The position numbers and the translations under genes are program-made. Under the pieces are notes generated by a model that was given only the letters and a program-made list of their open reading frames with translations, did not search any database and was not told the DNA's origin. Shown here piece by piece: positions 7,724 to 60,023 of a stretch of 64,000 nucleotides of DNA. The stretch spans positions 9,540-73,539 of the forward strand of contig MFNO01000022.1 in the NCBI GenBank assembly GCA_001782075.1, read 5' to 3'. The first letter of the stretch is position 1, and each line of letters opens with the position of its first letter. Origin of the DNA: Candidatus Levybacteria bacterium RIFCSPHIGHO2_01_FULL_38_26 (GTDB lineage: Bacteria > Patescibacteriota > Microgenomatia > Levybacterales > UBA12049).

Positions 7724-8091
7724 CCATGCAAAAAATTATTCCAACCATATATTTTTATTTATTAAGCGCGGTTGGGATGGTTTTGATTATTATTGGATTG
7801 TTTAATTCAACGCATTATATCGTTGGAGTTACTGCTTATGATAAATATCCTTTGGGCTACAGCCCTGAATCCAGATGTGAATTTACGCCAAAACCAGTCT
7901 TGCTTGAGGGACAGACAGAAGTAGAATCCAGCCCTGAAGATCTACAAAAATCAAAGGACGAGTGTTTAAAAAGCGTTGAAGAAGAGCGAAGAAATAAAAA
8001 GGTAGATGATTTGGAGAAATCAATAACCTTTACCGCAATTGGTCTTTTGGTATTCGGCGCCCACTTCTACTTCGCCCGCCGCCGGGAATGA
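7714..8091 (+). CDS. hypothetical membrane protein (2 TM)
   Basis: N- and C-terminal hydrophobic helices with an acidic central region. Confidence 0.3.
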
Positions 8092-8415
8092 GCTTTAGCG
8101 CAACGCAACTGGAATAGTTATCCCAAGATCCATAAGCTTCTTAAATTGTTCTTTCCCAATCTTCAAAAGCAAGTCTTGCTTAAAATATGCTAGATCGTTT
8201 TTCACTTTTTTCTTATTTAACAAAAAGAATTTCATAAGCTTCATACTAATATTATTGTAATTCCTGAAGTCTTAGGTATATAAAAAATCCAACTGCAATT
8301 CCTGTAAGCATAACTGTTTCCATAATAAAATCATTTTCTTTTATAGGTTTAAATATTTGATGAATTGAAGGTAAGAAATATGAAAGAAATTAAGCGTATT
8401 CTAAAGCTAAGAGGG

Positions 8416-8979
8416 TTAGTTGCTTTCTTTCCATTTAATACTGCAGCCGGAGCTTGGTTTTTGGTTATCGGTTACCGATTCATCGTTTAAAACATTGTCG
8501 ATTGCGTTTCTGAGGTCATGTCCGTCGGTTGGGAAGTTATTTCCGGGTCTGCTGTCGTCAAGCTGTCCTCTGTAGGCTAATTTTCTTTCTTTGTCAAAAA
8601 GGAAAAAGTCCGGAGTGCAGACGGCAGTGTATTCTTTTGCGACTGCTTGTGTTTCGTCAAACAATAATGGGAAGGTAAATCCTTCTTCTTCTGCCATTTC
8701 TCTAAGACTTTCCGGCGCGTCTTGCGGATAGCTTGCCGGATCATTAGAGCTTATCGAAACAATTCCTATGTCTTTATCCTTGTAATCTTTCCCTATTCTT
8801 GCCAGCTCTTCTTTAACATGCTGCACATACGGGCAATGTCTGCAGATAAACATTACAAGAAGCGCCTTTTTGTTTTTGAATGTGTCCAATGAAACATTTT
8901 GTCCAGATACAACATCAGTCAAACTAAAATCAGGCGCTTTGGTTCCAAGCGTTAACATGGTAGACTGCATCAGTGCCAT
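8416..8979 (-). CDS. thioredoxin-fold protein (AhpC/TSA / thiol-disulfide oxidoreductase-like)
   Basis: CxxC-type motif FICRHCPYVQ in a thioredoxin-like context; about 187 aa. Confidence 0.55.
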   Translation of the reverse strand: MALMQSTMLTLGTKAPDFSLTDVVSGQNVSLDTFKNKKALLVMFICRHCPYVQHVKEELARIGKDYKDKDIGIVSISSNDPASYPQDAPESLREMAEEEGFTFPLLFDETQAVAKEYTAVCTPDFFLFDKERKLAYRGQLDDSRPGNNFPTDGHDLRNAIDNVLNDESVTDNQKPSSGCSIKWKESN

Positions 8980-9066
8980 AATATTTTATATAAAATAGCA
9001 CATATCTTTTTTTAAAACAACCCTTAAATTATTGTTTCTGTAATATATAATTGGTAGTATTTTATT

Positions 9067-9861
9067 ATGATTGATGTTCATTGTCATTTAAATTTTCACG
9101 CATTTGAGAAGGATTACGAGAAGGTAATCAATAGTGCATATGATGCTGGGGTTACGAAGATTATTAATGTTGGGACCAAGATTGATTCGAGTCAAAAAGC
9201 AGTAGAGCTTGCAAGGAATTACGAAAACCTGTTTGCTATTGTCGGTGTTCATCCTCATCATGCAGACAAAATTGAAAGTGGATGGGAAGCTGAACTGGAA
9301 AAATTAGCCAAAGATACTAAAGTGGTTGGGATTGGGGAGTGCGGGATGGATTATTATAGATATAAATCAAACGATATCGTTGACCCAAAGGTTCAAAAAG
9401 AAATTTTTATAAAACAGATTGAACTTGCTTATAAACTTAAATTACCTCTACAAATTCACAATAGACATGCAGGCAAAGATATCCTCGATATAATCATAAA
9501 TCATAAATCATATCTTTCAGATCCTCCAGGGATGTTTCACTGCATGTCAGGAGATATTGATTTTTTAAAAAAAGTTCTTGATTTAGGTTTTTATGTTGGT
9601 TTTGATGGAAACATAACTTACAAAGGCATTGCGCCTGGAGAAAATACAGAGCTTAAAGACTTGGTTAAGTACGCTCCGCTTGATAGGATTGTCACAGAGA
9701 CAGACAGCCCTTTTTTAACCCCGCAGCCAAAACGAGGTAGCAGAAACATGCCAGAAAATGTTATAATTATAGGTAGGTTTATTGCGCAAATAAATGGATT
9801 GACATTGGGGCAAGTTGAGGAGCAAACAACAAAAAACGCGCACAATGTTTTTAAACTATGA
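9067..9861 (+). CDS. tatD: TatD-family metal-dependent DNase/hydrolase
   Basis: N-terminal IDVHCHLNF (HxH metal site), GVHPHH and GECGMDY segments typical of TatD. Confidence 0.8.
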   Translation: MIDVHCHLNFHAFEKDYEKVINSAYDAGVTKIINVGTKIDSSQKAVELARNYENLFAIVGVHPHHADKIESGWEAELEKLAKDTKVVGIGECGMDYYRYKSNDIVDPKVQKEIFIKQIELAYKLKLPLQIHNRHAGKDILDIIINHKSYLSDPPGMFHCMSGDIDFLKKVLDLGFYVGFDGNITYKGIAPGENTELKDLVKYAPLDRIVTETDSPFLTPQPKRGSRNMPENVIIIGRFIAQINGLTLGQVEEQTTKNAHNVFKL

Positions 9862-11351
9862 CAATATTTTTTCAAAAAATATTTACTCGCTATCCAAATA
9901 GAACCCAGCGAATGCTTGAAATATTGCCAGGATTTACTTCGTGGACTCTTATTCTTTTTCCTGTTTGGGGATCGCTGCTTATTCCTTACGTTGTTGCTTA
10001 CTTTATACTTTTTTTTGACGTTTATTGGTTTTATAAGTCGTTTTCACTGGCTATAACTGCTTATATTGCTTCCAAAAAAATAAAAGAGGCGGAAAATACG
10101 GATTGGCTAAAGAAAACAAAAAAACTCCGCAATTTTCAAAAAGTTACGCATGTCGTTGTAATTCCCAACTATAAAGAAAGTCTAGATAAACTTAGAGAAA
10201 CAGTCATGGCTCTGTCTTGGCAAACTTTTCCCCTAAAACGAATTTTTGTTGTTTTGGCAATGGAGGAGAGAGAAAAGGAGGCAACATATAAAGCCAAAAG
10301 CATAATTTCGGAATTTAGTCATATTTTTGGAGGCATCTTTGCTACTTACCACAAAGATGTTGCTGGAGAAGTTAAAGGTAAATCATCAAATGAGTCATAT
10401 GCTGCCAAAGTTGCGCATGATAAACTCGTGGATGATGGAATTATAGATATAAATTATGCAACTATATCTTCTGTTGATGCCGATTCAATCTTTGATAGAC
10501 AGTATTTTTCTTATCTTTGCTATAAGTTTCTCAACGATTCCAAACGCTATAATAAGTTTTGGCAGTCAGCAAATGTTTACTATAACAACTTTTGGAAGGT
10601 GCCGGCGCCTATTCGCGTCCTTGCTTTTTTTGGAAGTCTTTGGAGGATAGGCATACTTATTCAAAAAGACAGACTCGTTTCAAATTCTACCTATTCTTTG
10701 TCATTTTCGATGCTAAAAAAAATAGGATATTGGGATACAGATGTTATTCCTGAAGATTACAGAATTTTCTTCAAGGCTTTTTACAAACTGGGTGGAAACG
10801 TGTGGGCGGAGCCGATTTTTTTAAGAACGTCAATGGACGCACCTCTTTCTCATAGTTACATGAGAAGCCTTAAGAATAAATACAATCAAGAACTCCGTTG
10901 GTCATGGGGAGTATCGGATGATCCTTTGTTTATAAAATGGTGGTTAACAGTTCCCAACGTTCCCTTTATAAGAAAAACGATTATTCTTTACAATGTGCTT
11001 CTTGAACATTTTCTTTGGCCGGTCAATTGGTTTATCATAACAATCGCGGCAAATATTATGCCTTTTGTAAATCCTGTTTTTTCCCGCACCACTCTTGGCT
11101 ATAACTTGCCATACCTTGCGGGATTTATATTGACTTTGTGTCTTTTATCGCTGTGTTTTATGATAATTATAAACTTCAGACAGAGTTATAATTCCACTTC
11201 TCTATCAAAAGTTCGTCGATTATTAATGCCTCTTGAGTTTTTTCTCTTACCCATAGTTGGTTTTTTTCTCATAACTGTGCCTGCTCTTGTTTCACATACG
11301 CTTCTTATGATAGGAAAAAGGATTGAGTATAAAGTTACTGAAAAACTATGA
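9858..11351 (+). CDS. membrane-embedded processive family-2 glycosyltransferase (cellulose/chitin-synthase-like)
   Basis: N-terminal TM helices, a cytoplasmic GT-A domain with a DAD segment (SVDADS), the QxxRW hallmark (QELRW) and C-terminal TM helices. Confidence 0.6.
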   Translation: MTIFFQKIFTRYPNRTQRMLEILPGFTSWTLILFPVWGSLLIPYVVAYFILFFDVYWFYKSFSLAITAYIASKKIKEAENTDWLKKTKKLRNFQKVTHVVVIPNYKESLDKLRETVMALSWQTFPLKRIFVVLAMEEREKEATYKAKSIISEFSHIFGGIFATYHKDVAGEVKGKSSNESYAAKVAHDKLVDDGIIDINYATISSVDADSIFDRQYFSYLCYKFLNDSKRYNKFWQSANVYYNNFWKVPAPIRVLAFFGSLWRIGILIQKDRLVSNSTYSLSFSMLKKIGYWDTDVIPEDYRIFFKAFYKLGGNVWAEPIFLRTSMDAPLSHSYMRSLKNKYNQELRWSWGVSDDPLFIKWWLTVPNVPFIRKTIILYNVLLEHFLWPVNWFIITIAANIMPFVNPVFSRTTLGYNLPYLAGFILTLCLLSLCFMIIINFRQSYNSTSLSKVRRLLMPLEFFLLPIVGFFLITVPALVSHTLLMIGKRIEYKVTEKL

Positions 11352-12799
11352 GGATCGTCTTAAAACTTGGAAAAAGCCACGATCTTTTATTTCTCGTATT
11401 CTCCTTTGTTGCTTTTTTTCTACTTAGACTTCCTTCTTTTTTTGAGCCAAATTGGTATGGAGATGAGGGAGTATACCAGGCGATAGGAGAGGCTATCAAT
11501 AAAGGGAGTTTATTATATAGAGATATTTGGGATAACAAACCGCCGCTTCTTTATTTTCTTTACGCATTGTTTAACTCTGATCAGTTTGCCTTGCGGTTTG
11601 TCTCCTTTATTTTTGGAGCATTTTCTATTGTGGTTTTTTTCTTTTTGTCCAAAAAGCTTTTCTCGCATTATTTTTTGACTACTTCTATTTTCGTGATACT
11701 TTTGGGACTTCCTATTATTGAGGGGAATATTGCTAATGCCGAAAATTTCATGATGCTTCCAATTCTTTTGTCTGCCTTTTTAATCTATAGTTTGCCTAAA
11801 CCACATTCAAAAACTGTTAGCTTTCAATTAGTTGCGGCTGGTTTATTACTTGGCATTGCTTTTCTTTTTAAAGTGGTCGCAATTTTTGACCTAATTGCGT
11901 TTTTAATTTTTCTTGTTATTGCAAACATACATCATAGATTCGGTTTAGCCATAATAAAAGAGAAGGTATTACCTCTTGTTTTTGGTTTTTTAATGCCTTT
12001 TATTATTGCTGTTTTGTACTTTTGGACACAGGGCACTTTTGCGGATTTTGTAAAAGCAAGCTTTTCTAGTAATATCGGCTATGTAGCATGGGAGAACAAA
12101 GTTATCTTTTCTCAAGATTTGCTTTTACTTAAAACGCTTTTATTAGGAATTGTAGTTGTTTTGATTTTTGTAAAACGTAAGCTATTTAGCGTAAGCGCGC
12201 TTTTTATTCTATTGTGGTTTGTGTTCTCGTTGTATAGTGCTTTTTTTACCCAGCGCCCTTACACACACTATCTTTTAGTGCTTCTTCCTAGTTTTTGCCT
12301 TTTGTTTGGTTTAATATTTTCGGAGAAAAAACAGCAAAAGATACTAACTATTTTTTTTATTTTTGCACTCGTGTTGATTATGAAAAATTTCAACCTTTAT
12401 GAAAAATCAATTAGTTATTATCAAAATTTTGCCTCTTTTTTGATAGGAAACAAATCAGTTGTTTCTTATCAAGAGTTTTTCGATAAAAGAACGCCTGTTG
12501 ATTATAAAGTAGCGTCATTTATTAAGTCAAAACTAGGGAAAGAAGAAACAATTTTTATCTGGGGAAACAATGCCCAACTTTATAAAATCATAGGAACTAC
12601 GCCTTCTGTAAAGTACGTTGTATCATATCATGTCTTAAGCAACGAGGATGGGATGAGTAATATAAGAAAGACAATCAAAGCTACTAAGCCAAGGTTTATT
12701 ATTATCATGCCTGATCAAGAGCCTGCTTCTTTTGAGCTTGTCCAGTACTTTGAGAGAATTAGTATTGATAGGGTATCAATATATGAGAGGTTTTTTTAA
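11348..12799 (+). CDS. GT-C fold glycosyltransferase (GT39/GT83, PMT/ArnT-like), polytopic membrane protein
   Basis: More than 10 TM helices; first-loop WYGDEGVY (the DE motif of PMT/ArnT-type GT-C enzymes). Confidence 0.55.
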   Translation: MRIVLKLGKSHDLLFLVFSFVAFFLLRLPSFFEPNWYGDEGVYQAIGEAINKGSLLYRDIWDNKPPLLYFLYALFNSDQFALRFVSFIFGAFSIVVFFFLSKKLFSHYFLTTSIFVILLGLPIIEGNIANAENFMMLPILLSAFLIYSLPKPHSKTVSFQLVAAGLLLGIAFLFKVVAIFDLIAFLIFLVIANIHHRFGLAIIKEKVLPLVFGFLMPFIIAVLYFWTQGTFADFVKASFSSNIGYVAWENKVIFSQDLLLLKTLLLGIVVVLIFVKRKLFSVSALFILLWFVFSLYSAFFTQRPYTHYLLVLLPSFCLLFGLIFSEKKQQKILTIFFIFALVLIMKNFNLYEKSISYYQNFASFLIGNKSVVSYQEFFDKRTPVDYKVASFIKSKLGKEETIFIWGNNAQLYKIIGTTPSVKYVVSYHVLSNEDGMSNIRKTIKATKPRFIIIMPDQEPASFELVQYFERISIDRVSIYERFF

Positions 12800-38682: not shown

Positions 38683-39437
38683 TTGACATAAAAACCCCAA
38701 AAGAAATTTCGATAATGGCGGCTGGAGGAAAAATTTTGGCAGAAGTCCTAAGTGAAGTTTTGTCAAAAATAAAACCAGGGGTTTCAGAGCTGGAGCTTGA
38801 CAACCTTGCTGAGAAATTAATAAGAGGGAAAGGGGCAGAGCCTGGTTTTAAAAGAGTAGAAGGCTACAGGTACTCTATTTGTATTTCGACAAATGAGGCG
38901 GTTGTTCATGGCATCCCCACAGATTATAGGTTTAAAGAAGGGGATGTTGTAGGCGTGGATTGCGGTGTTTATTTTAAAGGGTTTAATACGGATATGGCAC
39001 AAACAATAGAGGTTAAAGGTCAAAGCGACGACAGTGTTGATAAGTTTCTTAAGACAGGAGAAAAGGCATTGATAGAAGGAATTAAACAAGCAATGCCAGG
39101 AAATAGGGTGGGGCATATTTCCAAAGCAATACAAGATATAGTTGAAGAAAAAGGTTATTCTGTGGTCAGAAGTTTAGTTGGACATGGGGTGGGTAGAGAA
39201 CTTCATGAGGAGCCAGAAGTTCCAGGTTTTTTGATAAAAAAGATCGATCAGACCCCCAATCTTAAAGAGGGAATGGTTATTGCTGTTGAAGTAATTTACA
39301 ACATGGGAAAAGCGGATGTGGAGTATTCAAATGATGACGGATGGACAATTAAAACTAAGGACAATAGTTTGTCTGGGCTTTTTGAGAGAACAATTGCAGT
39401 AACAAAAAGTGGCCCAGTTGTCTTAACAACGGTTTGA
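38679..39437 (+). CDS. map: methionine aminopeptidase type I
   Basis: 252 aa; pita-bread-fold metal ligands (DVVGVDCG, HGVGRELHEEP, VIAVE). Confidence 0.9.
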   Translation: MIDIKTPKEISIMAAGGKILAEVLSEVLSKIKPGVSELELDNLAEKLIRGKGAEPGFKRVEGYRYSICISTNEAVVHGIPTDYRFKEGDVVGVDCGVYFKGFNTDMAQTIEVKGQSDDSVDKFLKTGEKALIEGIKQAMPGNRVGHISKAIQDIVEEKGYSVVRSLVGHGVGRELHEEPEVPGFLIKKIDQTPNLKEGMVIAVEVIYNMGKADVEYSNDDGWTIKTKDNSLSGLFERTIAVTKSGPVVLTTV

Positions 39438-52367: not shown

Positions 52368-53087
52368 TTATTTTCCAAACCTTCTTTGTCTGTTTGAGTA
52401 TTCTTGGACAGCGAAATCGATATCGTCTTCGTTTAGATCCGGAAAGTGTTTGTCAAAAAAAACATACTCTGCATAAGCTGCCTGCCAGATCATAAGCCCC
52501 GATGTTCTTTGTTCCCCGCTTGTTCTTATAATCAGATCTGGATTCGGATGCGGTTGGTCATGCGTGTCTAGAAATTGATTAAAATTCTTCTCATCTAAGT
52601 TTTGAACTTTGAACTCTTGCTCTGAGCGACGTCGAAGAGTTGAACTTTGAACTTTCTTGATTGCTCGGATTACTTCATCGCGTCCTCCATAGTCAAGAGC
52701 GACATTTAAAATATATTTTTTGAAATCTTTTGTTTTTTCTTCACTTTCTGTAATTTTTTTAAGCAAACTTTTAGGAAGCCTGTCTTTTCTTCCAAGGTGA
52801 ACCACTCGTATTTCTTCTTTTATGGACTCCTTTAGATTTTTTTCTATGAATATTTCATATAGTTTCATAAGATACCGAACTTCTTCTAGAGCTCTTTTCC
52901 AGTTTTCGGTCGAGAATGCCCAAAGGGTGAAGGTGTTTATTCCCAAAGTCCTTACTTTTCGTCCGATCTTTATCGCAGTGTCAAACCCAATCCTATGTCC
53001 CTCAAAGGTAGGTTTGTTACGAGATTTTGCCCATCTCCTGTTGCCATCTGGAATTATAGCCAAATGATTTGGAATGGTAAGTTGCAT
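52368..53087 (-). CDS. uppS: undecaprenyl-diphosphate synthase (cis-prenyltransferase)
   Basis: HLAIIPDGNRRWA and the C-terminal RFG motif. Confidence 0.9.
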   Translation of the reverse strand: MQLTIPNHLAIIPDGNRRWAKSRNKPTFEGHRIGFDTAIKIGRKVRTLGINTFTLWAFSTENWKRALEEVRYLMKLYEIFIEKNLKESIKEEIRVVHLGRKDRLPKSLLKKITESEEKTKDFKKYILNVALDYGGRDEVIRAIKKVQSSTLRRRSEQEFKVQNLDEKNFNQFLDTHDQPHPNPDLIIRTSGEQRTSGLMIWQAAYAEYVFFDKHFPDLNEDDIDFAVQEYSNRQRRFGK

Positions 53088-53120
53088 ATTGTAAAATGGA
53101 GTATATCATAATATAATACT

Positions 53121-53807
53121 ATGATGGCAGCAAGGAAAGCGACTAGCAAAAGGACAAAATCCACAAATGTTTCCGCCTGGGAACCCAACAAAGAAACCTT
53201 TGCCTCGGGAAGAAAATCAAGACAGCTTTTCAGCAAACGAAATGTTTTCATTGCCCTTGGGATAGTAATAATTGTTGGAATTTTGTATTATTTCAGAGGT
53301 TTGTTTGTGGTCGCTTTAGTCAACGGTCAGCCAATAACTAGGTTTGAAGTAATCCAAGAGCTTGAGAAACGAGGTGGCGAGCAGACATTGTCATCTCTTG
53401 TTACACAAGCACTTATTGTTCAAGAGGCAGGAAGGCAGGGGGTAAATGTCACAGAAGCAGAGATCGATGAAGAAGTCAAAAAACTTGAGGATACTCTTAA
53501 ACAGCAAGGGCAGAATCTTGACGATGCGCTCATGTTTCAAGGAACAACTAGAGAGAAATTTAGAGAACAAATTCGTGTACAGAAACTTGTTGAAAAAATG
53601 TTGGCAGATGAAATAAAAGTAACAGATAAGGAAATTACTGATTATATTCAACAGAATAAAGATACTATTCCAGCAACCATGAGTCCTTCTGAAGTAACAT
53701 CAAGCGCAAAACAAGCATTGGAAGATCAAAAAATGTCTGTCAAAGTACAGGAGTGGCTGCAAAAATTACAGGAGGCTGCACAAATTCAGTACTTTGTTAA
53801 TTACTAA
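53121..53807 (+). CDS. membrane-anchored SurA-N/PpiD-like chaperone domain protein
   Basis: Single N-terminal TM helix followed by a helical region resembling the SurA N-terminal chaperone domain; assignment tentative. Confidence 0.35.
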   Translation: MMAARKATSKRTKSTNVSAWEPNKETFASGRKSRQLFSKRNVFIALGIVIIVGILYYFRGLFVVALVNGQPITRFEVIQELEKRGGEQTLSSLVTQALIVQEAGRQGVNVTEAEIDEEVKKLEDTLKQQGQNLDDALMFQGTTREKFREQIRVQKLVEKMLADEIKVTDKEITDYIQQNKDTIPATMSPSEVTSSAKQALEDQKMSVKVQEWLQKLQEAAQIQYFVNY

Positions 53808-54381
53808 TTTTTCTTCTGCTTATAATTCTTTCAAAGACCTGACTTATTAACATTCCAGTAAATAGCACGATTAAATAAATTGTCAAAAGGATTTGAAAAG
53901 GCGCGGGAGACGTCTTCATAATTCCCAAAATAAAAGCAGACCACCAAGATAGACTAGAAATAGACCCAAAGGCAAAAAACAATCTTCTTACCTCCTTGAT
54001 GTTTTCATCAGATGATGTCATCAATTCTCTAAAAGGGATAGATGAAAGTTTTGGAGAGATAAAGTGTAGAAAAAGTCCGTTGATAATTATCACAAATACA
54101 ACAAGCATCTTGGTCAAAAACTTTGCAGACTGAGAGTATTTATCGATATCTGAAAGAAATAAAAATATTCCCGCTGAAACAATTACTAAAAGACCGAACC
54201 AAATTATTTTTGAAAAAGCCCTTAAAATATTTATCTCTATTTTTGTAGCATTAAGGTTTTTTAGAAGTTTTAGGAAAAATACATCTGCAATCATTACCGT
54301 CCCAAAACTCACAAACACTCCGAAAAGATGAAGCGTTGTGAATAAAACTTTGTTCTGCTGTGCAAACCCAATTAAGTCCAT
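53797..54381 (-). CDS. hypothetical membrane protein (5 TM)
   Basis: Hydrophobic profile only. Confidence 0.3.
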   Translation of the reverse strand: MDLIGFAQQNKVLFTTLHLFGVFVSFGTVMIADVFFLKLLKNLNATKIEINILRAFSKIIWFGLLVIVSAGIFLFLSDIDKYSQSAKFLTKMLVVFVIIINGLFLHFISPKLSSIPFRELMTSSDENIKEVRRLFFAFGSISSLSWWSAFILGIMKTSPAPFQILLTIYLIVLFTGMLISQVFERIISRRKISN

Positions 54382-54592
54382 GCAATTAATTTTAGCAGAA
54401 ACGGAAGGGATTTAATATAATATTAAACGGAAACTTGTCAGATCAGATTTTGAAAATATATCCTTCCTCGGAGCGCGCGACTCTTCCCGCAGTCGGATTT
54501 GCAAAATACGTGCCATCCTCCATTTCAACAATCTGAAAAAACTCAACCTCCCCAATTTTCCATCTCAAGCTATTCATTGTTTATAGATAAAT

Positions 54593-55381
54593 TTATTTCC
54601 TATCGGGATTTCTGTCGGGTTTTAAAAGATAAGATGAGATAGTATCATCGACTCCAGCATGCTGTATCCCTTCTATTTTAAAATGTCTGAATCCAGTAAG
54701 TTCATCAATACTTATTCCTTGATAAAAAACTTCTCTGTTTTCCTCGGAAGTCCTGCATATAATTCTTGAGTCAGAACCGGTATGTTGCCAAATATTATCC
54801 ATAATATTCTGTTTTGGCTTTGCAAGAAGAGCAACAAAAATTACTTTGTTACCATGTGTAGAGCCCTTTTGTCCGGTTGAGTTAACTACGCTTATTTTTT
54901 CACTCATGCCCAATTTTTCGATTACTTCTCTTGATCTGCTAACTACCTCGTCATTTTGTTCATAGCACTCAACGTTCGCGCCGGTCATTCTAGAAATAAG
55001 GATAGGAGATATTGTGAATGGGCCACTTCCTATAAACAAAACTCTGTCATCTTCTTTTACTTTTGCGAGTTCGGTTTCTTTGGCAATCAGCCGCTTAAAT
55101 CTATCGTACAGAGGGTATTCTTCTTCAGAATTTGTCTCACCTGATAGTAATTTTTGAGCAAATTCATTCTCCAAATTTGTTTCAAATTGTTCATAAAGAG
55201 CCTGTAATCTTTTTAAAGTATTTCTGTTTGCTAGATCGGAAACATCAGGATCTTTTAAATTGTCACTTTGCAAAAACATCTCATCCAGTCGAAAGCAGGC
55301 ATTTCTCACAGCTGAAGGGTCTTCAAGATTGGTACTTGCCAGTTGGCTGATTTCGGGTATAAGCTTTGGTATTTCGGTCAT
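54593..55381 (-). CDS. nicotianamine-synthase-like protein (short archaeal-type NAS fold; SAM-derived aminoalkyl transferase)
   Basis: ...YPLYDRFKRLIAKETELAKV...RVLFIGSGPFTISPILISR...ANVECYEQNDEVVSRSREVI follows the NAS pattern (FPYY.NY..L...E..LL....kVAFVGSGPLPLTSIVLA....T.F.NFDID..AN..A), and the size (about 260 aa) matches archaeal NAS homologues. Confidence 0.5.
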   Translation of the reverse strand: MTEIPKLIPEISQLASTNLEDPSAVRNACFRLDEMFLQSDNLKDPDVSDLANRNTLKRLQALYEQFETNLENEFAQKLLSGETNSEEEYPLYDRFKRLIAKETELAKVKEDDRVLFIGSGPFTISPILISRMTGANVECYEQNDEVVSRSREVIEKLGMSEKISVVNSTGQKGSTHGNKVIFVALLAKPKQNIMDNIWQHTGSDSRIICRTSEENREVFYQGISIDELTGFRHFKIEGIQHAGVDDTISSYLLKPDRNPDRK

Positions 55382-55394
55382 TGTGAAAACAAAA

Positions 55395-55763
55395 TTATAT
55401 TTCCTGGTGGACCAGGTCTTTGGATTTGAAAAAATCTTTCGTGAACATCACTACTTTTTTTACGTCAAACTTCTTACAGCTGTAAATATCGGACGTAAAA
55501 AATTTGACTTTTCTCCAGGCATATACATGGCAGCCGGATTCTGTCCATGCGACAAAACCATTCAGCTCGTAGAGTGGCACATCTTGGTTATCCCATTTGT
55601 CTGGAGGCCAAGAGTAGGGACCAGAGAATATTCTCATCTTCAGGACTTTGGAAAGTTCTTTGAGATAATATTTTATTGTCTTACCATCGGCATTGATCCC
55701 ATAATGACCCTCAATGATAAGTCTTTGTCTGATAACACTCGGCTCTAAATTCTTCACACCCAA
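55395..55763 (-). CDS. S-adenosylmethionine decarboxylase-like pyruvoyl-dependent proenzyme (SpeH/SpeD class 1b-like)
   Basis: 122 aa; LIIEGHYGIN N-terminal strand; the putative Glu-Ser self-cleavage site in FVAWTESGCHVYAWRK aligns with the AdoMetDC LSESHISIHTWPE; SDIYSCK aligns with DVFTCG. Confidence 0.5.
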   Translation of the reverse strand: MGVKNLEPSVIRQRLIIEGHYGINADGKTIKYYLKELSKVLKMRIFSGPYSWPPDKWDNQDVPLYELNGFVAWTESGCHVYAWRKVKFFTSDIYSCKKFDVKKVVMFTKDFFKSKDLVHQEI

Positions 55764-55832
55764 ATTATACCATTTAACCTATTTACAATTGCTATTGAGC
55801 TCCAATGAGCGTATAATTTCGTTAACAAAAAT

Positions 55833-56846
55833 ATGGCTACTGTAGGAAGATCAAAAAGTGGAATTAATTACCTTGCTGAGTTGTTAAGAGAAGCACCTAA
55901 AACTCTTACAAAGGTTTGTTTCTGGAAAATACCACATAATACTGGAAAAGAAGATATTAGATTAAAAATAGGAAGATATAATAAAGACGGTTTTGAAACT
56001 TTGGAAACTAGACAACCTAAAAGCGAATTAACACTTGATCACGAGGAGTTTCAAAACTTGCTTAAATTTTTATCAGAAAATTATGAACCTTTCAAGAAGG
56101 GTGTTATGAAATACATTCCAATTGATGAAAAATTTGATGAAAAGAGCATAGATCACCTGAGGGCAATTTTTGCAAATCCTGATAAGCAAAAAGTTTTAGA
56201 TTTCGTAGCAGAGAATAATATTCTTCCTGTGGATCTAATTGCTTCTCTACAACATCAAATGCGAATAAATGCGGTTCGAGAATTTGAAGGTATGTTAAAT
56301 AAAAATTTACTCGAGCAAAAGTGGCAAGAATGGTTTGAAAGAAACGATTGGGTATTGGGCAGCGAGTTTGTAAAAATTCTCGATGAAAGGGAAATAGATA
56401 CATCAAACATCACGGACTATTTAATGCAAGCATACGATGGATTTTTAGATATTATTGAAATAAAAAGACCAGAAGGAGATTTACAATTTTGGGCTGAAGG
56501 ACAAGATCACGGAAATTATGTGCCTTCAAACGACTTAACGAAAGCCATAACTCAAGCTACGAAATATATTTATGAAGTCGAACGAGAAGCGAATAGTATT
56601 AAGTTTTTGGAAAGGGTTGGAAATGTAAAAACCATTAAGCCACGCTGCATTTTAATTTTCGGAAGATCCAATGATTGGAATAATGAAAAAAGAGAGTCGT
56701 ATCGAATATTGAACTCAAGTTATCATAGCCTGACTATTATGACTTACGATCATGTATTAAGTAGGGCTAAAAGGATTTTGGGATTTAGTGGTAAGGAGGA
56801 AGCTGTTATGAAAGAAGATGTTCAACCAAAAGATGTATCCTTTTAG
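55833..56846 (+). CDS. Shedu-like antiphage defence nuclease (DUF4263, PD-(D/E)xK)
   Basis: C-terminal domain with AYDGFLDIIEIKRPE (D...ExK core), ILIFGRS and the terminal LTIMTYDHVL block typical of DUF4263/SduA; variable N-terminal domain. Confidence 0.6.
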   Translation: MATVGRSKSGINYLAELLREAPKTLTKVCFWKIPHNTGKEDIRLKIGRYNKDGFETLETRQPKSELTLDHEEFQNLLKFLSENYEPFKKGVMKYIPIDEKFDEKSIDHLRAIFANPDKQKVLDFVAENNILPVDLIASLQHQMRINAVREFEGMLNKNLLEQKWQEWFERNDWVLGSEFVKILDEREIDTSNITDYLMQAYDGFLDIIEIKRPEGDLQFWAEGQDHGNYVPSNDLTKAITQATKYIYEVEREANSIKFLERVGNVKTIKPRCILIFGRSNDWNNEKRESYRILNSSYHSLTIMTYDHVLSRAKRILGFSGKEEAVMKEDVQPKDVSF

Positions 56847-56938
56847 ATATGCAAAATAAATCTTTTTTTGAACTAAAAACTAGGGGAATTTGGAGACGGT
56901 TCTTAGAAAATTTATTTACTAATCCAAAAGTTGTTTAG

Positions 56939-57511
56939 TTATGCTTTTGGGGGTTTTCCTTCATGACCATCTGAAATTGTTCTCCGAATGTCTTCGAGCG
57001 CGCTTCTGTCTTTTTCACTTAGGTCATCATTGCCACGAATGGTACGAAATGGATTTACTTCAAGCGAATCAGCCCTTCCCTCTTTACTTCTTCTTTCTAT
57101 TTCAAGATCAATAATGTTTGCATTGCCATCTTTAGATATTCGAGCCAGTTCTTTACCGGAGAATACAAAGTTGGAGATAGGTCTGGGTTTTCCTTCCCTT
57201 GCCATTATTTGATCTCCACTGTAATGTTCGCCTGCAATCTCGTCTGAAATATCAACTACTATCAAAAATCCTTTTTCTCCTGCAAAACCACGTGCCATTT
57301 CTTCATCATCGGTAAAGAATTGGGAACCGGCGATTTTTGCAAGTTTTGCCCATCTTCCAAAACGTTCTGATCCCATTCTGTTGATAACATCAATAGGATT
57401 TTTTGTCCCTTCCGAAGCAGCTTGTTTTGCAGTATTTAGCTCATTCCATTCATTTTCAAGTTTTTCATCAAGAATTTCTGGTTTTTCCTTATATCCTCTA
57501 TATAGTTTCAT
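56939..57511 (-). CDS. hypothetical soluble protein
   Basis: 190 aa, charged, no motif recognised; lies between the Shedu-like gene and tag. Confidence 0.3.
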   Translation of the reverse strand: MKLYRGYKEKPEILDEKLENEWNELNTAKQAASEGTKNPIDVINRMGSERFGRWAKLAKIAGSQFFTDDEEMARGFAGEKGFLIVVDISDEIAGEHYSGDQIMAREGKPRPISNFVFSGKELARISKDGNANIIDLEIERRSKEGRADSLEVNPFRTIRGNDDLSEKDRSALEDIRRTISDGHEGKPPKA

Positions 57512-57668
57512 TGACTTAATGATACCATAATTATTTGAAATATAGGAAGTTGGGGTTATTTTGGAAAAGATTTATTTGATAGTCAAAATTGAAATATTTT
57601 TAACCTCTGTAAATATCGTGGGTGCCGATTTTATAGCTTTGAACATCGGGTGTTGATTGGCTTAGAGA

Positions 57669-58238
57669 TTATATTTCGTTATATCGGAAGCATTGTAGCT
57701 GGTGGTCGTTTACCATGCCAACTGCTTGCATGAAAGCATAGCAGATGGTGGGGCCGACGAATTTGAATCCTCTTTTGAGTAAATCTTTGCTCATTGTTTC
57801 CGCTTCTTTTGTCCTGGTTGGATAATCATCTAGATTTTTGAAAGAATTTTTTATAGGTTTGTAATTTACAAATCCCCATATATATTTGTCAAAACTTCCG
57901 AACTCTTTTTGGACGAGTATAAATGATTTTGCATTTTGAATTGCAGCAGCGATTTTTAATCGGTTTCTGATGATACCGCTATCGGCAAGAAGGGAATTGA
58001 TTTTTTTAGAGTCATATTTTGCAATTTTCTTTATATCAAATAAGTCAAAAGCTTTTTTGTAATTTTTTCTTTTCTTCAAAATAGTCATCCAGGATAACCC
58101 TGCTTGTGCGCCTTCAAGAATTAACATTTCAAATAATTTCTTGTCATCATGTACCGGTATTCCCCATTCAAAATCATGATATTCTATATCAAGCGGATCA
58201 TTACCGACCCACTCGCATTTGTTTTTATCATTTTTCAT
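57669..58238 (-). CDS. tag: DNA-3-methyladenine glycosylase I
   Basis: CEWVGNDPLDIEYHDFEWGIPVHDDKKLFEMLILEGAQAGLSWMTIL matches the Tag family. Confidence 0.85.
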   Translation of the reverse strand: MKNDKNKCEWVGNDPLDIEYHDFEWGIPVHDDKKLFEMLILEGAQAGLSWMTILKKRKNYKKAFDLFDIKKIAKYDSKKINSLLADSGIIRNRLKIAAAIQNAKSFILVQKEFGSFDKYIWGFVNYKPIKNSFKNLDDYPTRTKEAETMSKDLLKRGFKFVGPTICYAFMQAVGMVNDHQLQCFRYNEI

Positions 58239-58275
58239 ACAGAAGCAATATTAAGACTTTGAGCTTGTCGAAAAG

Positions 58276-58346
58276 TCGGGATGCCGTGAATCGGACACGG
58301 ACTACCGCACCCCCAGCGCGGCGTACTACCACTATACTACATCCCG
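58276..58346 (-). tRNA. tRNA-Pro (anticodon GGG), 71 nt before CCA
   Basis: Hand-folded cloverleaf on the minus strand: acceptor CGGGATG/CATCCCG (7 bp), U8, D-stem GTAT/GTAC with a GG-containing loop, anticodon stem CCGCG/TGCGG with loop CTGGGGG (U33, anticodon GGG), 4-nt variable loop, T-stem CCGTG/CACGG with loop TCCGATT. This is a GC-rich island in AT-rich DNA. Confidence 0.6.
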
Positions 58347-58407: not shown

Positions 58408-59487
58408 ATGGCGAGGGCTTCTAGTAATCAAAAAACCAAACTTCCAAACGGTCCAACTGAAGCGTCACAAAAACTTGATGCCGTAAGGCTTGCAATGGAG
58501 CAGATAGAAAAGCAGTACGGCAGGGGTTCTATAATGCGCTTTGGAGAGGCAGGAAAAAAGTTTGATATTTCTGTGATTTCAACCGGCTGTCTTCCTTTGG
58601 ATTTAGCACTTGGTGTGGGAGGCGTGCCAAGAGGAAGAATCGTTGAAATTTTTGGACCTGAGGCATCGGGTAAAACTACTGTTTGTTTATCCATTATCGC
58701 TCAAGCGCAAAAACACGGAGGAGTGGCGGCATTTATAGATGCAGAGCATGCCTTAGATCCTTTGTGGGCGCAAAGAATTGGAGTAAAGCTTGATGAGCTT
58801 CTTATTTCCCAACCGGATACGGGAGAGCAGGCCCTTGAAATAGCAGAGAGCCTTATCCGAAGCGGCGGGGTAGATGTTTTGGTGATTGATTCTGTTGCCG
58901 CATTAGTTCCTCGGGCAGAGATAGAAGGAGAAATGGGCGATGCAATGATTGGTCTTCAAGCAAGGCTTATGTCCCAGGCTCTTCGAAAATTAACAGGTGT
59001 TATTTCAAAATCAAAAACTGTCGCGATTTTTACCAATCAACTGCGGCAAAAAATTGGAGTGATGTTTGGAAATCCGGAGACAACAACCGGAGGGCTGGCG
59101 CTGAAGTTTTATGCATCAGTAAGAATGGATGTCAGGAAAATAGAAACCCTGAAAGATGGAGATAAAGCAATTGGATCAAGACATAGAGTAAAAATAGTTA
59201 AAAATAAAGTTTCAGCTCCTTTTAGACTCGCGGAGTTTGACGTGATGGGAGATGGCATATCACGGGAGGGGGGAGTTATAGATGTCGGAGTTGAGATGGG
59301 GATTATTCAAAAATCCGGAGCTTTTTATAAACATGGAAATACAATGCTTGGACAAGGAAAACAAGCGACAATAATGTATTTGAGAGAAAATCCAGAAGTT
59401 GCAAAAAAAATAATAGCTGAAATTATGCAGAAAAGCAGAGACGGCGGAATGCCGGTTGCCGTTGGGGTCGAAGAAGAGCAAAGCTAA
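58408..59487 (+). CDS. recA: recombinase RecA
   Basis: GPEASGKTT Walker A; ALDP...L2 region; 359 aa. Confidence 0.97.
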
Positions 59488-60023
59488 TTGTCATCGGTCA
59501 TGATTACCTTTGAAATACCCTCGTATCTATTATATTTATTTACAATCAGCGGTAGCGCTTGATCCTCAATTTCAAATGGTTTTTTAAGCCATTCTACCTG
59601 CTGAAGCATCTGAAGATCACCTGATAGTTGCTTTTCGAACATTTTTTTGTTTTGGATCTTCATTGACAGCAAAAACTCTGTAGGTTTTGTATTTATATCC
59701 CAAGTTTGTACAATTTTCCTAGAACGTGCAAAAAAAAGCCTAGATGTTCCAAACGGCTCTAATGTTGTTTTTAATTCTTCCTTTATAGTTGGGTCAAGCC
59801 TTAGGATTTCCATTAAACCTAATTCTGTTGCCGCACGTGTCAATACCTGATGCGCATAATGTAATTCATTTTCCTGCAGTCTGTTTGCTAACGTTTGGTA
59901 TTCTGGGGATAGATATATCTCGCGTTCTAGCCAGCTTTCGGCTTTCTTACGAATGGGTATCATAAAATTATCCATTCGGTGCTCCGCTTCAAGAAGCCTC
60001 CTTCGCCTTTCATGCATGTTCAT
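59484..60023 (-). CDS. hypothetical protein encoded antisense between recA and recX
   Basis: 179 aa, soluble, Arg-rich N-terminus; no motif recognised; 4-bp overlap with the recA stop. Confidence 0.3.

Follow-up and report, generated by a model that had tools for sequence, protein, structure and literature searches.

In Pseudomonas aeruginosa, the core defence hotspot cDHS1 is flanked by pheT/ihfA and by a proline tRNA, and homologous recombination mediated by the flanks has been suggested as the route by which such core defence hotspots (cDHS) are transferred (PMC10250203). The present analysis is concerned with a comparable locus of Candidatus Levybacteria bacterium RIFCSPHIGHO2_01_FULL_38_26 (Patescibacteriota), located on a stretch of 64,000 nucleotides (contig MFNO01000022.1, positions 9,540 to 73,539 of the forward strand) that will be referred to as the window. 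Members of this candidate-phyla group have small genomes, in which defence systems and mobile elements are usually said to be scarce. A first reading, made from the sequence alone, had proposed that a block of non-core genes abutting the 3' end of a tRNA-Pro is an accessory island, possibly an old or degraded one. The accessory nature of this block and its position against the tRNA are retained below, but the block turns out to be a mosaic of several modules deprived of integration machinery and not a single island. Positions 53808-58274 probably constitute a variable slot, or defence hotspot, that is free of integrase, flanked by core genes and held between two conserved core blocks.

The window contains a single tRNA, a tRNA-Pro(GGG) predicted by ARAGORN on the minus strand, the 3' end of which (58275) points to lower coordinates and faces the non-core block, as initially described. 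Between this 3' end and the stop codon of a SurA-like gene, the analysis of open reading frames (ORFs) combined with Pfam recovers the same genes and the same uppS, SurA-like and recA flanks as the sequence-only reading. The six genes of the slot (Table 1) encode successively a membrane protein, a nicotianamine-synthase-like (NAS) protein, an AdoMetDC-like protein, a Shedu nuclease, a protein of 190 amino acids (aa) and Tag. On the other side of the tRNA are found recA, a 179-aa ORF, recX, RNase Y and HU. The block is densely packed, with only 443 bp of non-coding DNA, and its first gene, encoding the membrane protein, overlaps the 3' end of the SurA-like gene by 11 bp. The likelihood that an assembly or binning chimera joined this block to the core flanks is practically negligible. 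Some contigs of other samples (L003 and L004) do break inside tag, but the identical arrangement is present in two independent assemblies of the same species (97 kb from JGI and 105 kb from ENA, differing by 2-5 mismatches over 15.6 kb), which excludes an assembly artefact, and matching flanks are observed in the relatives.

The locus was recovered in about seven relatives, all of them metagenome contigs, with SurA-like and Shedu homologues serving as entry points. A common frame is kept in these organisms, with uppS-SurA on the left, preceded by a mevalonate operon, and tRNA-Pro-recA-recX-RNaseY-HU on the right. The uppS gene adjoins the SurA-like gene in the contigs designated L085, L086, L175, L172, L179 and P0049, and the protein identity of uppS amounts to 72-78% in the closest relatives, that of SurA to 53-66% in the nearest ones. 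The order of the right flank is conserved in L172 and in the P0049 contig, and recA is reached through the tRNA-Pro in L175 as well. A tRNA-Pro(GGG) in the same orientation is found directly upstream of recA in L172, in L175/L176 and in Ca. Daviesbacteria (L005). The sequences of the relatives part directly past the conserved ...AACTACTAA stop of the SurA-like gene, and from this point every genome with a readable slot differs. Seven distinct states, that of the window included, were observed, ranging from an empty slot to seven genes.

The empty state is that of the P0049 contig (SurA 54% identical to the window), in which gene calls give uppS (-) and SurA (+), a gap of at most 220 bp, then recA, recX, RNase Y and HU, followed by UvrD/PDDEXK and RmuC. 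L172 (GCA_030649355.1; recA 82%, SurA 47%) displays the mevalonate operon, a polyprenyl synthase, uppS, SurA, one Bro-N gene of the phage type (phrog_15286), the tRNA-Pro(GGG) (-), recA, recX, RNase Y and HU. In L175/L176 (uppS 72-78%, SurA 53-60%), the order is MDD, uppS, SurA, a Shedu gene standing alone, the tRNA-Pro(GGG) (-) and recA. The comparison recommended by the sequence-only reading, namely whether uppS and recA are contiguous elsewhere, is therefore answered by these contigs, in which uppS-SurA and tRNA-Pro/recA are adjacent or separated by a single gene. The other states are richer. In L085 (uppS 72%, SurA 65%), uppS and SurA are followed by a metallo-beta-lactamase-fold (MBL) gene, a 422-aa Shedu, PDC-M19A, PDC-M19B and tag. 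L086 (uppS 78%, SurA 61%) combines, after uppS and SurA, a left part made of a homologue of the membrane protein (52%), TauE, NAS (77%) and AdoMetDC (83%) and a right part made of a YafQ-like toxin with Phd/YefM, APH, a PIN protein with a Phd-like antitoxin, and tag (84%). In L179 (SurA 48%), SurA is followed by a 247-aa protein, a PIN toxin-antitoxin pair, a 354-aa protein and a SET-domain protein. Measured from the SurA stop to the 3' end of the tRNA, the slot spans 4467 bp in the window, against 1161 bp for L175 and 849 bp for L172, and the cargo ends respectively 36, 76 and 29 bp from the tRNA.

Since the frame is conserved and the DNA enclosed within it differs, the block is genuinely accessory, its gene content being unlike in each relative examined. 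Several versions of the slot hold defence or toxin-antitoxin genes, in agreement with the defence cargo that had made the block look island-like in the first place. By simple count, the defence genes are Shedu in the window and in L175, a second Shedu subtype in L085, and PDC-M19 in L085; the toxin-antitoxin genes are the YafQ/Phd and PIN/Phd pairs of L086 and the PIN pair of L179. Other entry points into the locus were less informative. RecA is too conserved for a search of the one-genome-per-species collection and retrieved mostly unrelated phyla, L005 (69%) and one other bacterium being the useful exceptions. Tag, which is widely conserved, gave 80 metagenome loci at 57-74% identity, none of them with uppS, SurA or recA. 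Two further SurA homologues, P0033 in an rpoB/rpoC context and P0058 in a dnaE context, represent paralogues or rearranged genomes and were not informative.

The Shedu protein matches the PADLOC SduA model over its full length. Its nuclease domain is also similar to those of two SduA proteins of solved structure, 8TI8 and 8PS4; the match with 8TI8 is weak (phmmer E 3.6e-8) and covers the nuclease domain and part of the linker. The catalytic residues of Bacillus cereus Shedu in motifs II (D), III (E-x-K) and IV (Q), namely D249, E264, K266 and Q295, have D195, E209, K211 and Q241 as their counterparts in the alignment, so that the active site is intact (bioRxiv 10.1101/2023.08.10.552793). The gene has in addition a promoter-like element of its own and stands alone in L175. 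On these grounds, sduA of the window is predicted to encode a single-gene nuclease active against phages. As judged from protein identities, the gene was evidently acquired horizontally. The window Shedu is 83% identical to that of L175, in which the flanking genes are less similar (MDD 63%, uppS 72-78%, SurA 53-60%), and homologues at 70-79% identity are found in Omnitrophota (on a 659-kb contig), Ignavibacteria (on a 605-kb contig), Flavobacteriaceae, Shapirobacteria, Moranbacteria and Parcubacteria. RecA is among the most conserved bacterial proteins. Outside the species, it reaches only 59-69% identity among the best-scoring 80 loci of the one-genome-per-species collection, and it is the 70-83% identity of Shedu across phyla, above these values, which argues for its horizontal movement. 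As to the vehicle of this transfer, no relative was found in viral contigs, and plasmid homologues are below 34% identity only.

The Shedu of L085 belongs to a different subtype (PADLOC PDLC00394, E 3e-104). A segment of 58 bp located upstream of the window Shedu (55775-55832, plus strand) matches positions 2506-2562 of L085, and its last ~45 bp match also positions 1890-1936 of L175. The promoter-like element TTGCTA-17-TATAAT lies within this conserved segment and is found ahead of the two Shedu subtypes, which suggests that the coding sequence was replaced behind a retained upstream region. This last observation can be extended into a more specific proposal, according to which the slot would be a dedicated, integrase-independent cassette-exchange site, the promoter segment at 55789-55817 serving as a fixed "socket" in which Shedu subtypes and other defence genes would be exchanged by recombination next to recA, with the 190-aa protein as a new ADP-ribosyltransferase-like effector of defence or toxicity. 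Taken as a whole, this proposal is considered distinctly unlikely.

The remainder of the block is equally composite. When compared at the DNA level and by tblastn, the homology blocks end within ~15 bp of gene ends, and each of the three Levybacteria-like relatives has its own subset of the block. Positions 52641-54401 of the window (uppS, SurA and the membrane protein) and 54580-55819 (NAS and AdoMetDC) match L086, and positions 57671-58127 match tag of both L085 and L086. Between the membrane-protein gene and NAS, at the place occupied by TauE in L086, lies the relic of an MBL gene that is intact in L085. In this relic, the first 22 codons of the gene are joined in frame to its last 22-23 codons. 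By tblastn with the Lactamase_B protein of L085, residues 1-22 are 77% identical (E 2e-6) and residues 266-288 are 61% identical (E 2e-5), both in one frame; the window reads MNSLRWKIGEVEFFQIVEMEDG directly followed by TYFANPTAGRVARSEEGYIFKI, and L085 reads MNNLKWKIGEVEIFQVVEMEGG...GTHFSNPVVGQVVNSEKGYIFKM. Compared with L085, the window has the NAS-AdoMetDC pair interposed precisely between the start codon of the MBL gene and the segment upstream of Shedu. Farther to the right, a stretch of 36 bp resembles, at 86% identity, the final 11 codons of the YafQ-like gene (89 aa) that stands beside Phd/YefM in L086, which weakly suggests a relic of such a toxin gene. Decay of cargo genes within the slot is shown by these two relics. 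The idea of an old or degraded island is supported to this extent, the two relics being those of cargo genes and not of integration machinery. The block is thus a patchwork of small modules with different histories, devoid of integrase, and not one tRNA-integrated island.

The NAS-like and AdoMetDC-like genes form one of these modules. The NAS-like family is rare (150 hits), and its identity to the window protein falls from 77% in L086 to 50% or less elsewhere. It is scattered over DPANN archaea and Xanthomonadales, and some of the homologues are fused to GNAT domains. The same pair is found in L178 (8001-9161) in the reversed order and in an unrelated context, beside a GNAT gene, a helix-turn-helix regulator and a transposase of the rve family. 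The pair behaves as a mobile two-gene module. It makes presumably a small molecule derived from S-adenosylmethionine (SAM), and this product could be exported by the membrane protein, and by TauE in L086. The homologue of the membrane protein found in L086 occupies the matching position, and the gene is absent from L085, L175 and L172. A PADLOC match of the NAS-like protein to "mad2" (E 2e-6) was set aside as a generic similarity of the SAM-binding fold and gives no assignment to defence.

The composition of the block was examined in parallel. Its guanine plus cytosine (GC) content is 34.9% versus 37.8% for the window and ~36% for the adjacent left core (49-53 kb), and its tetranucleotide distance from the window mean stands at the 90th percentile of windows of equal size. 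For each gene, the distances in GC, in GC at third codon positions (GC3) and in codon usage are inside the spread of the 75 ORFs of the window, with codon-usage z values below 2. GC and codon usage are consequently indistinguishable from those of the core, contrary to what might be looked for in an island, and of the two features by which the sequence-only reading would have recognized ordinary core DNA, conservation of the block in all relatives and a core-like composition, only the second is observed. The strongest tetranucleotide deviation of the window lies elsewhere, at about 8000-11500 (distance ~0.21 versus a mean of 0.147).

This core-like composition, which holds for tetranucleotides as well, is an argument for the view that the block is ancestral DNA adjacent to the core and that nothing but differential gene loss, without any horizontal gain, separates the relatives. 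L086 moreover has the membrane protein, NAS, AdoMetDC and tag in common with the window at 52-84% identity, versus 78% for uppS and 61% for SurA in the core, and this core-like identity is compatible with descent from a common ancestor of both organisms. The relics prove that losses happen, and the genomes of the candidate-phyla group are generally held to be reductive. Gene loss alone is nevertheless most improbable as an explanation of the whole slot. It is opposed by a Shedu protein conserved at 70-83% across phyla, by the two Shedu subtypes placed behind one promoter segment, by the unrelated cargo of each relative (Bro-N, PDC-M19, toxin-antitoxin pairs, APH, SET), and by a NAS family that is rare, phyletically patchy and found elsewhere beside a transposase.

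The search for integration machinery was negative at several levels. Scans with Pfam, PADLOC and PHROG detected no integrase or recombinase among the ORFs of the block, and no PHROG phage match was obtained in it. Likewise, no integrase, recombinase, transposase or phage structural gene was found in the slots of L085, L086, L172, L175 and L179, within the parts that were recovered, several of these contigs ending inside the slot. With up to 3 mismatches allowed, the block contains no other copy of the 3'-terminal 16-27 nt of the tRNA-Pro; blastn-short gave no repeat of the tRNA 3' end at 52-58 kb, and the repeat finder gave none involving the tRNA. These scans, together with a pattern search, confirm the absence of integrase and of tRNA repeat noticed initially, and the partial tRNA-Pro repeat that had been proposed as a further check is missing from the block. 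A match of 14 out of 16 positions at 38905-38920, wrongly oriented and lying within an ORF, was taken as due to chance. No att-like repeat derived from the tRNA was found in L172 or L175 either at the same threshold. Beyond these relatives, in Ca. Daviesbacteria L005 (JACPZA010000011.1), positions 8725-8741 (-) contain an exact 17-nt repeat, ATTCCTCTCACCCCGAC, of the 3' end of the tRNA-Pro(GGG) (8792-8865), 51 nt downstream of this tRNA. This repeat suggests an att scar, this tRNA being then an integration target in a related lineage.

These data bear directly on the classical explanation, in which one or several integrase-mediated islands, possibly stacked in tandem, were inserted at the 3' end of the tRNA-Pro and have since lost their integrase and their attR site by decay. 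In the window as in L172 and L175, the 3' end of the tRNA marks precisely the start of the variable segment, and tRNA 3' ends are common integration sites (PMC10121019, PMC10250203). The phage-type Bro-N gene of L172, the scar-like duplicate of L005 and the deletion relics, which show that the region decays, can be read in the same way. This explanation is however unlikely, given that neither the window slot nor the recovered parts of those of its relatives contain an integrase or recombinase, and that no repeat derived from the tRNA exists in the window, L172 or L175. Besides, 443 bp of non-coding DNA leave no room for a hidden integrase remnant, nor does the overlap of the first cargo gene with the SurA stop leave room for an attR site. 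Finally, the gene proximal to the tRNA is tag, which is common to two relatives, and not an integrase, and the histories of the modules differ.

The explanation retained here as probable is that of a core-flanked hotspot without integrase, the content of which would be a stack of at least five small modules, each independently gained or lost: the membrane protein, the MBL gene (now a relic), the NAS-like/AdoMetDC-like pair, the promoter-bearing Shedu cassette, the 190-aa gene and tag. The turnover would take place without a site-specific integrase and could follow two routes. The first is homologous recombination through the conserved flanks and the shared internal modules, after uptake of DNA from related cells; the second is the illegitimate insertion or deletion of single-gene cassettes at gene boundaries. 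The tRNA-Pro would then be a conserved flank and not an active att site. The functions gathered in the slot would be those of an anti-phage nuclease (Shedu), possibly of an NAD-utilising toxin-like protein, of a small SAM-dependent metabolite pathway and of a base-excision repair enzyme.

Several points weigh on the other side of the balance. The recombination mechanism is deduced and not observed, and composition gives no independent sign of a foreign origin. The empty slot of the P0049 contig is read from gene calls alone, the tRNA-Pro being unconfirmed in its 220-bp gap, and the contigs of L085 and L086 stop inside tag, so that their junction with tRNA-Pro/recA is unseen. The sample is limited to these seven or so contigs and has no species tree, and for this reason gains cannot be polarised with respect to losses. 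Lastly, the Bro-N gene of L172 and the 17-nt duplicate of L005 are signs that elements of the integrase type may have used this tRNA in the wider group.

Two of the modules deserve a separate description. The 190-aa protein had been regarded as an orphan; it has in fact homologues in 46 representative clusters, with the conserved motifs MKLYRGY, QFFTDD and SNFVF-G-E. No match was obtained for it in Pfam, PADLOC, PHROGs or the PDB profile, and Foldseek against the PDB gave nothing significant. Its AlphaFold model is confident (predicted local distance difference test, pLDDT, of 92). This protein belongs to a small uncharacterised family; its fold is tentatively viewed as ADP-ribosyltransferase-like, and it is possibly an NAD-utilising toxin-like protein. 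Tag is a base-excision repair enzyme. Its gene closes the slot on the right in L085 and L086, with 83-84% identity, whereas the slots of L172, L175 and the P0049 contig lack it. In the window, it starts 36 bp downstream of the tRNA-Pro on the same strand and is probably co-transcribed with it.

Table 1. Features of the variable slot and of its flanks (window coordinates).
Feature	Position	Strand	Evidence
uppS (undecaprenyl-diphosphate synthase), left flank	52368-53087	-	Pfam Prenyltransf E 5.5e-71
SurA_N-like gene, left boundary of slot	53121-53807	+	Pfam SurA_N_3 E 4e-10
194-aa multi-pass membrane protein, module 1	53797-54381	-	~4-5 transmembrane-like segments; weak matches to DUF6644/DUF2214
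MBL-fold gene relic, 44 codons	54443-54577	-	tblastn vs L085 Lactamase_B protein
nicotianamine-synthase-like (NAS), module 2a	54593-55381	-	PF03059 E 5e-16
AdoMetDC-like, module 2b	55395-55763	-	AdoMet_dc PF02675 E 3e-7
Promoter-like element TTGCTA-17-TATAAT, Shedu cassette	55789-55817	+	consensus scan 10/12
sduA (Shedu), module 3	55833-56846	+	SduA_C PF14082 E 6e-26; PADLOC PDLC00385 E 1.6e-142
190-aa protein, module 4	56939-57511	-	no family match
Possible relic resembling YafQ-like toxin gene 3' end, 36 bp	57601-57636	-	86% identity to L086 3819-3854
tag (3-methyladenine DNA glycosylase I), module 5	57669-58238	-	Adenine_glyco/Tag PF03352 E 6e-83
tRNA-Pro(GGG), right boundary of slot	58275-58346	-	ARAGORN
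recA, right flank	58408-59487	+	Pfam RecA E 2.5e-129

Some additional observations were made on the flanks of the slot. The 179-aa ORF located between recA and recX (59484-60023, minus strand) has no Pfam or PHROG match, and recA and recX directly adjoin, without this ORF, in L172 and in the P0049 contig. By its position, it looks like a second single-gene insertion, into an otherwise conserved recA-recX pair. In the P0023 contig (ENA ERZ27297570, gene calls), a block DUF192-TsaD-...-RmuC-FAD_binding-UvrD/PDDEXK stands in inverted orientation immediately upstream of the SurA-like gene; it sits to the right of recA in the species of the window, which suggests a rearrangement breakpoint at the same junction. 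Upstream of uppS, the P0049 contig carries the methylerythritol phosphate (MEP) pathway genes IspH, Dxr, IspD, IspF, IspE and IspG, and the corresponding position is held by a mevalonate-pathway operon in the window (45.7-52.4 kb), L087, L172 and L179. This is an isoprenoid-pathway swap at a conserved position. Finally, uppS of L175 (477-1162, minus strand) is called as 153 aa only and is recovered by tblastn as two segments (aa 1-146 and 159-239), so that it carries a frameshift or is a pseudogene, unless this contig of low coverage was misassembled.

If the retained explanation is correct, this lineage of Levybacteria would keep a compact accessory and defence slot, with a fast turnover, at a fixed chromosomal address and devoid of recognisable mobility genes. 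Bounded by the SurA-like gene and by tRNA-Pro-recA, this interval provides a concrete address for the mining of new defence or toxin genes in the candidate-phyla group, and the locus is a test case for gene flux in organisms without classical mobile-element machinery.

The comparison with known systems can be made at the level of the nuclease and at that of the slot. The window Shedu shares with its counterpart of B. cereus B4264 (PDB 8TI8) a DUF4263 PD-(D/E)xK domain, the four catalytic-motif residues, the presence of an N-terminal domain (Type 1) and the status of a stand-alone gene. It differs by an N-terminal domain that is uncharacterised, and by its membership of a subfamily, PDLC00385, that is very highly conserved and spread across phyla. 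Like the classical genomic or pathogenicity islands integrated at tRNAs, the slot is located at a tRNA 3' end, carries accessory cargo and is variably present among relatives; unlike them, it lacks an integrase and flanking direct repeats, and its composition does not deviate. The defence hotspots situated at tRNA loci in Escherichia coli similarly exhibit alternative defence cargo between conserved flanks, but this cargo is mostly borne by prophages, satellites and integrative mobilisable elements (PMC10121019), none of which was detected here. The closest described analogue is cDHS1 of P. aeruginosa (PMC10250203), where a slot between core genes and a tRNA-Pro is likewise filled with defence systems varying from genome to genome. 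The P. aeruginosa hotspots span tens of kb, are almost always occupied and often contain integrases, integrative and conjugative elements or prophage genes, whereas the present slot ranges from 0 to 4.5 kb, mixes defence with metabolic and repair genes, contains no mobility gene in the recovered sequence and belongs to a candidate-phyla host with a small genome. That hotspots flanked by core genes can reside at a tRNA is a principle already known from Proteobacteria; the added value of the present locus comes from its host lineage and from the uncharacterised 190-aa family that it contains.

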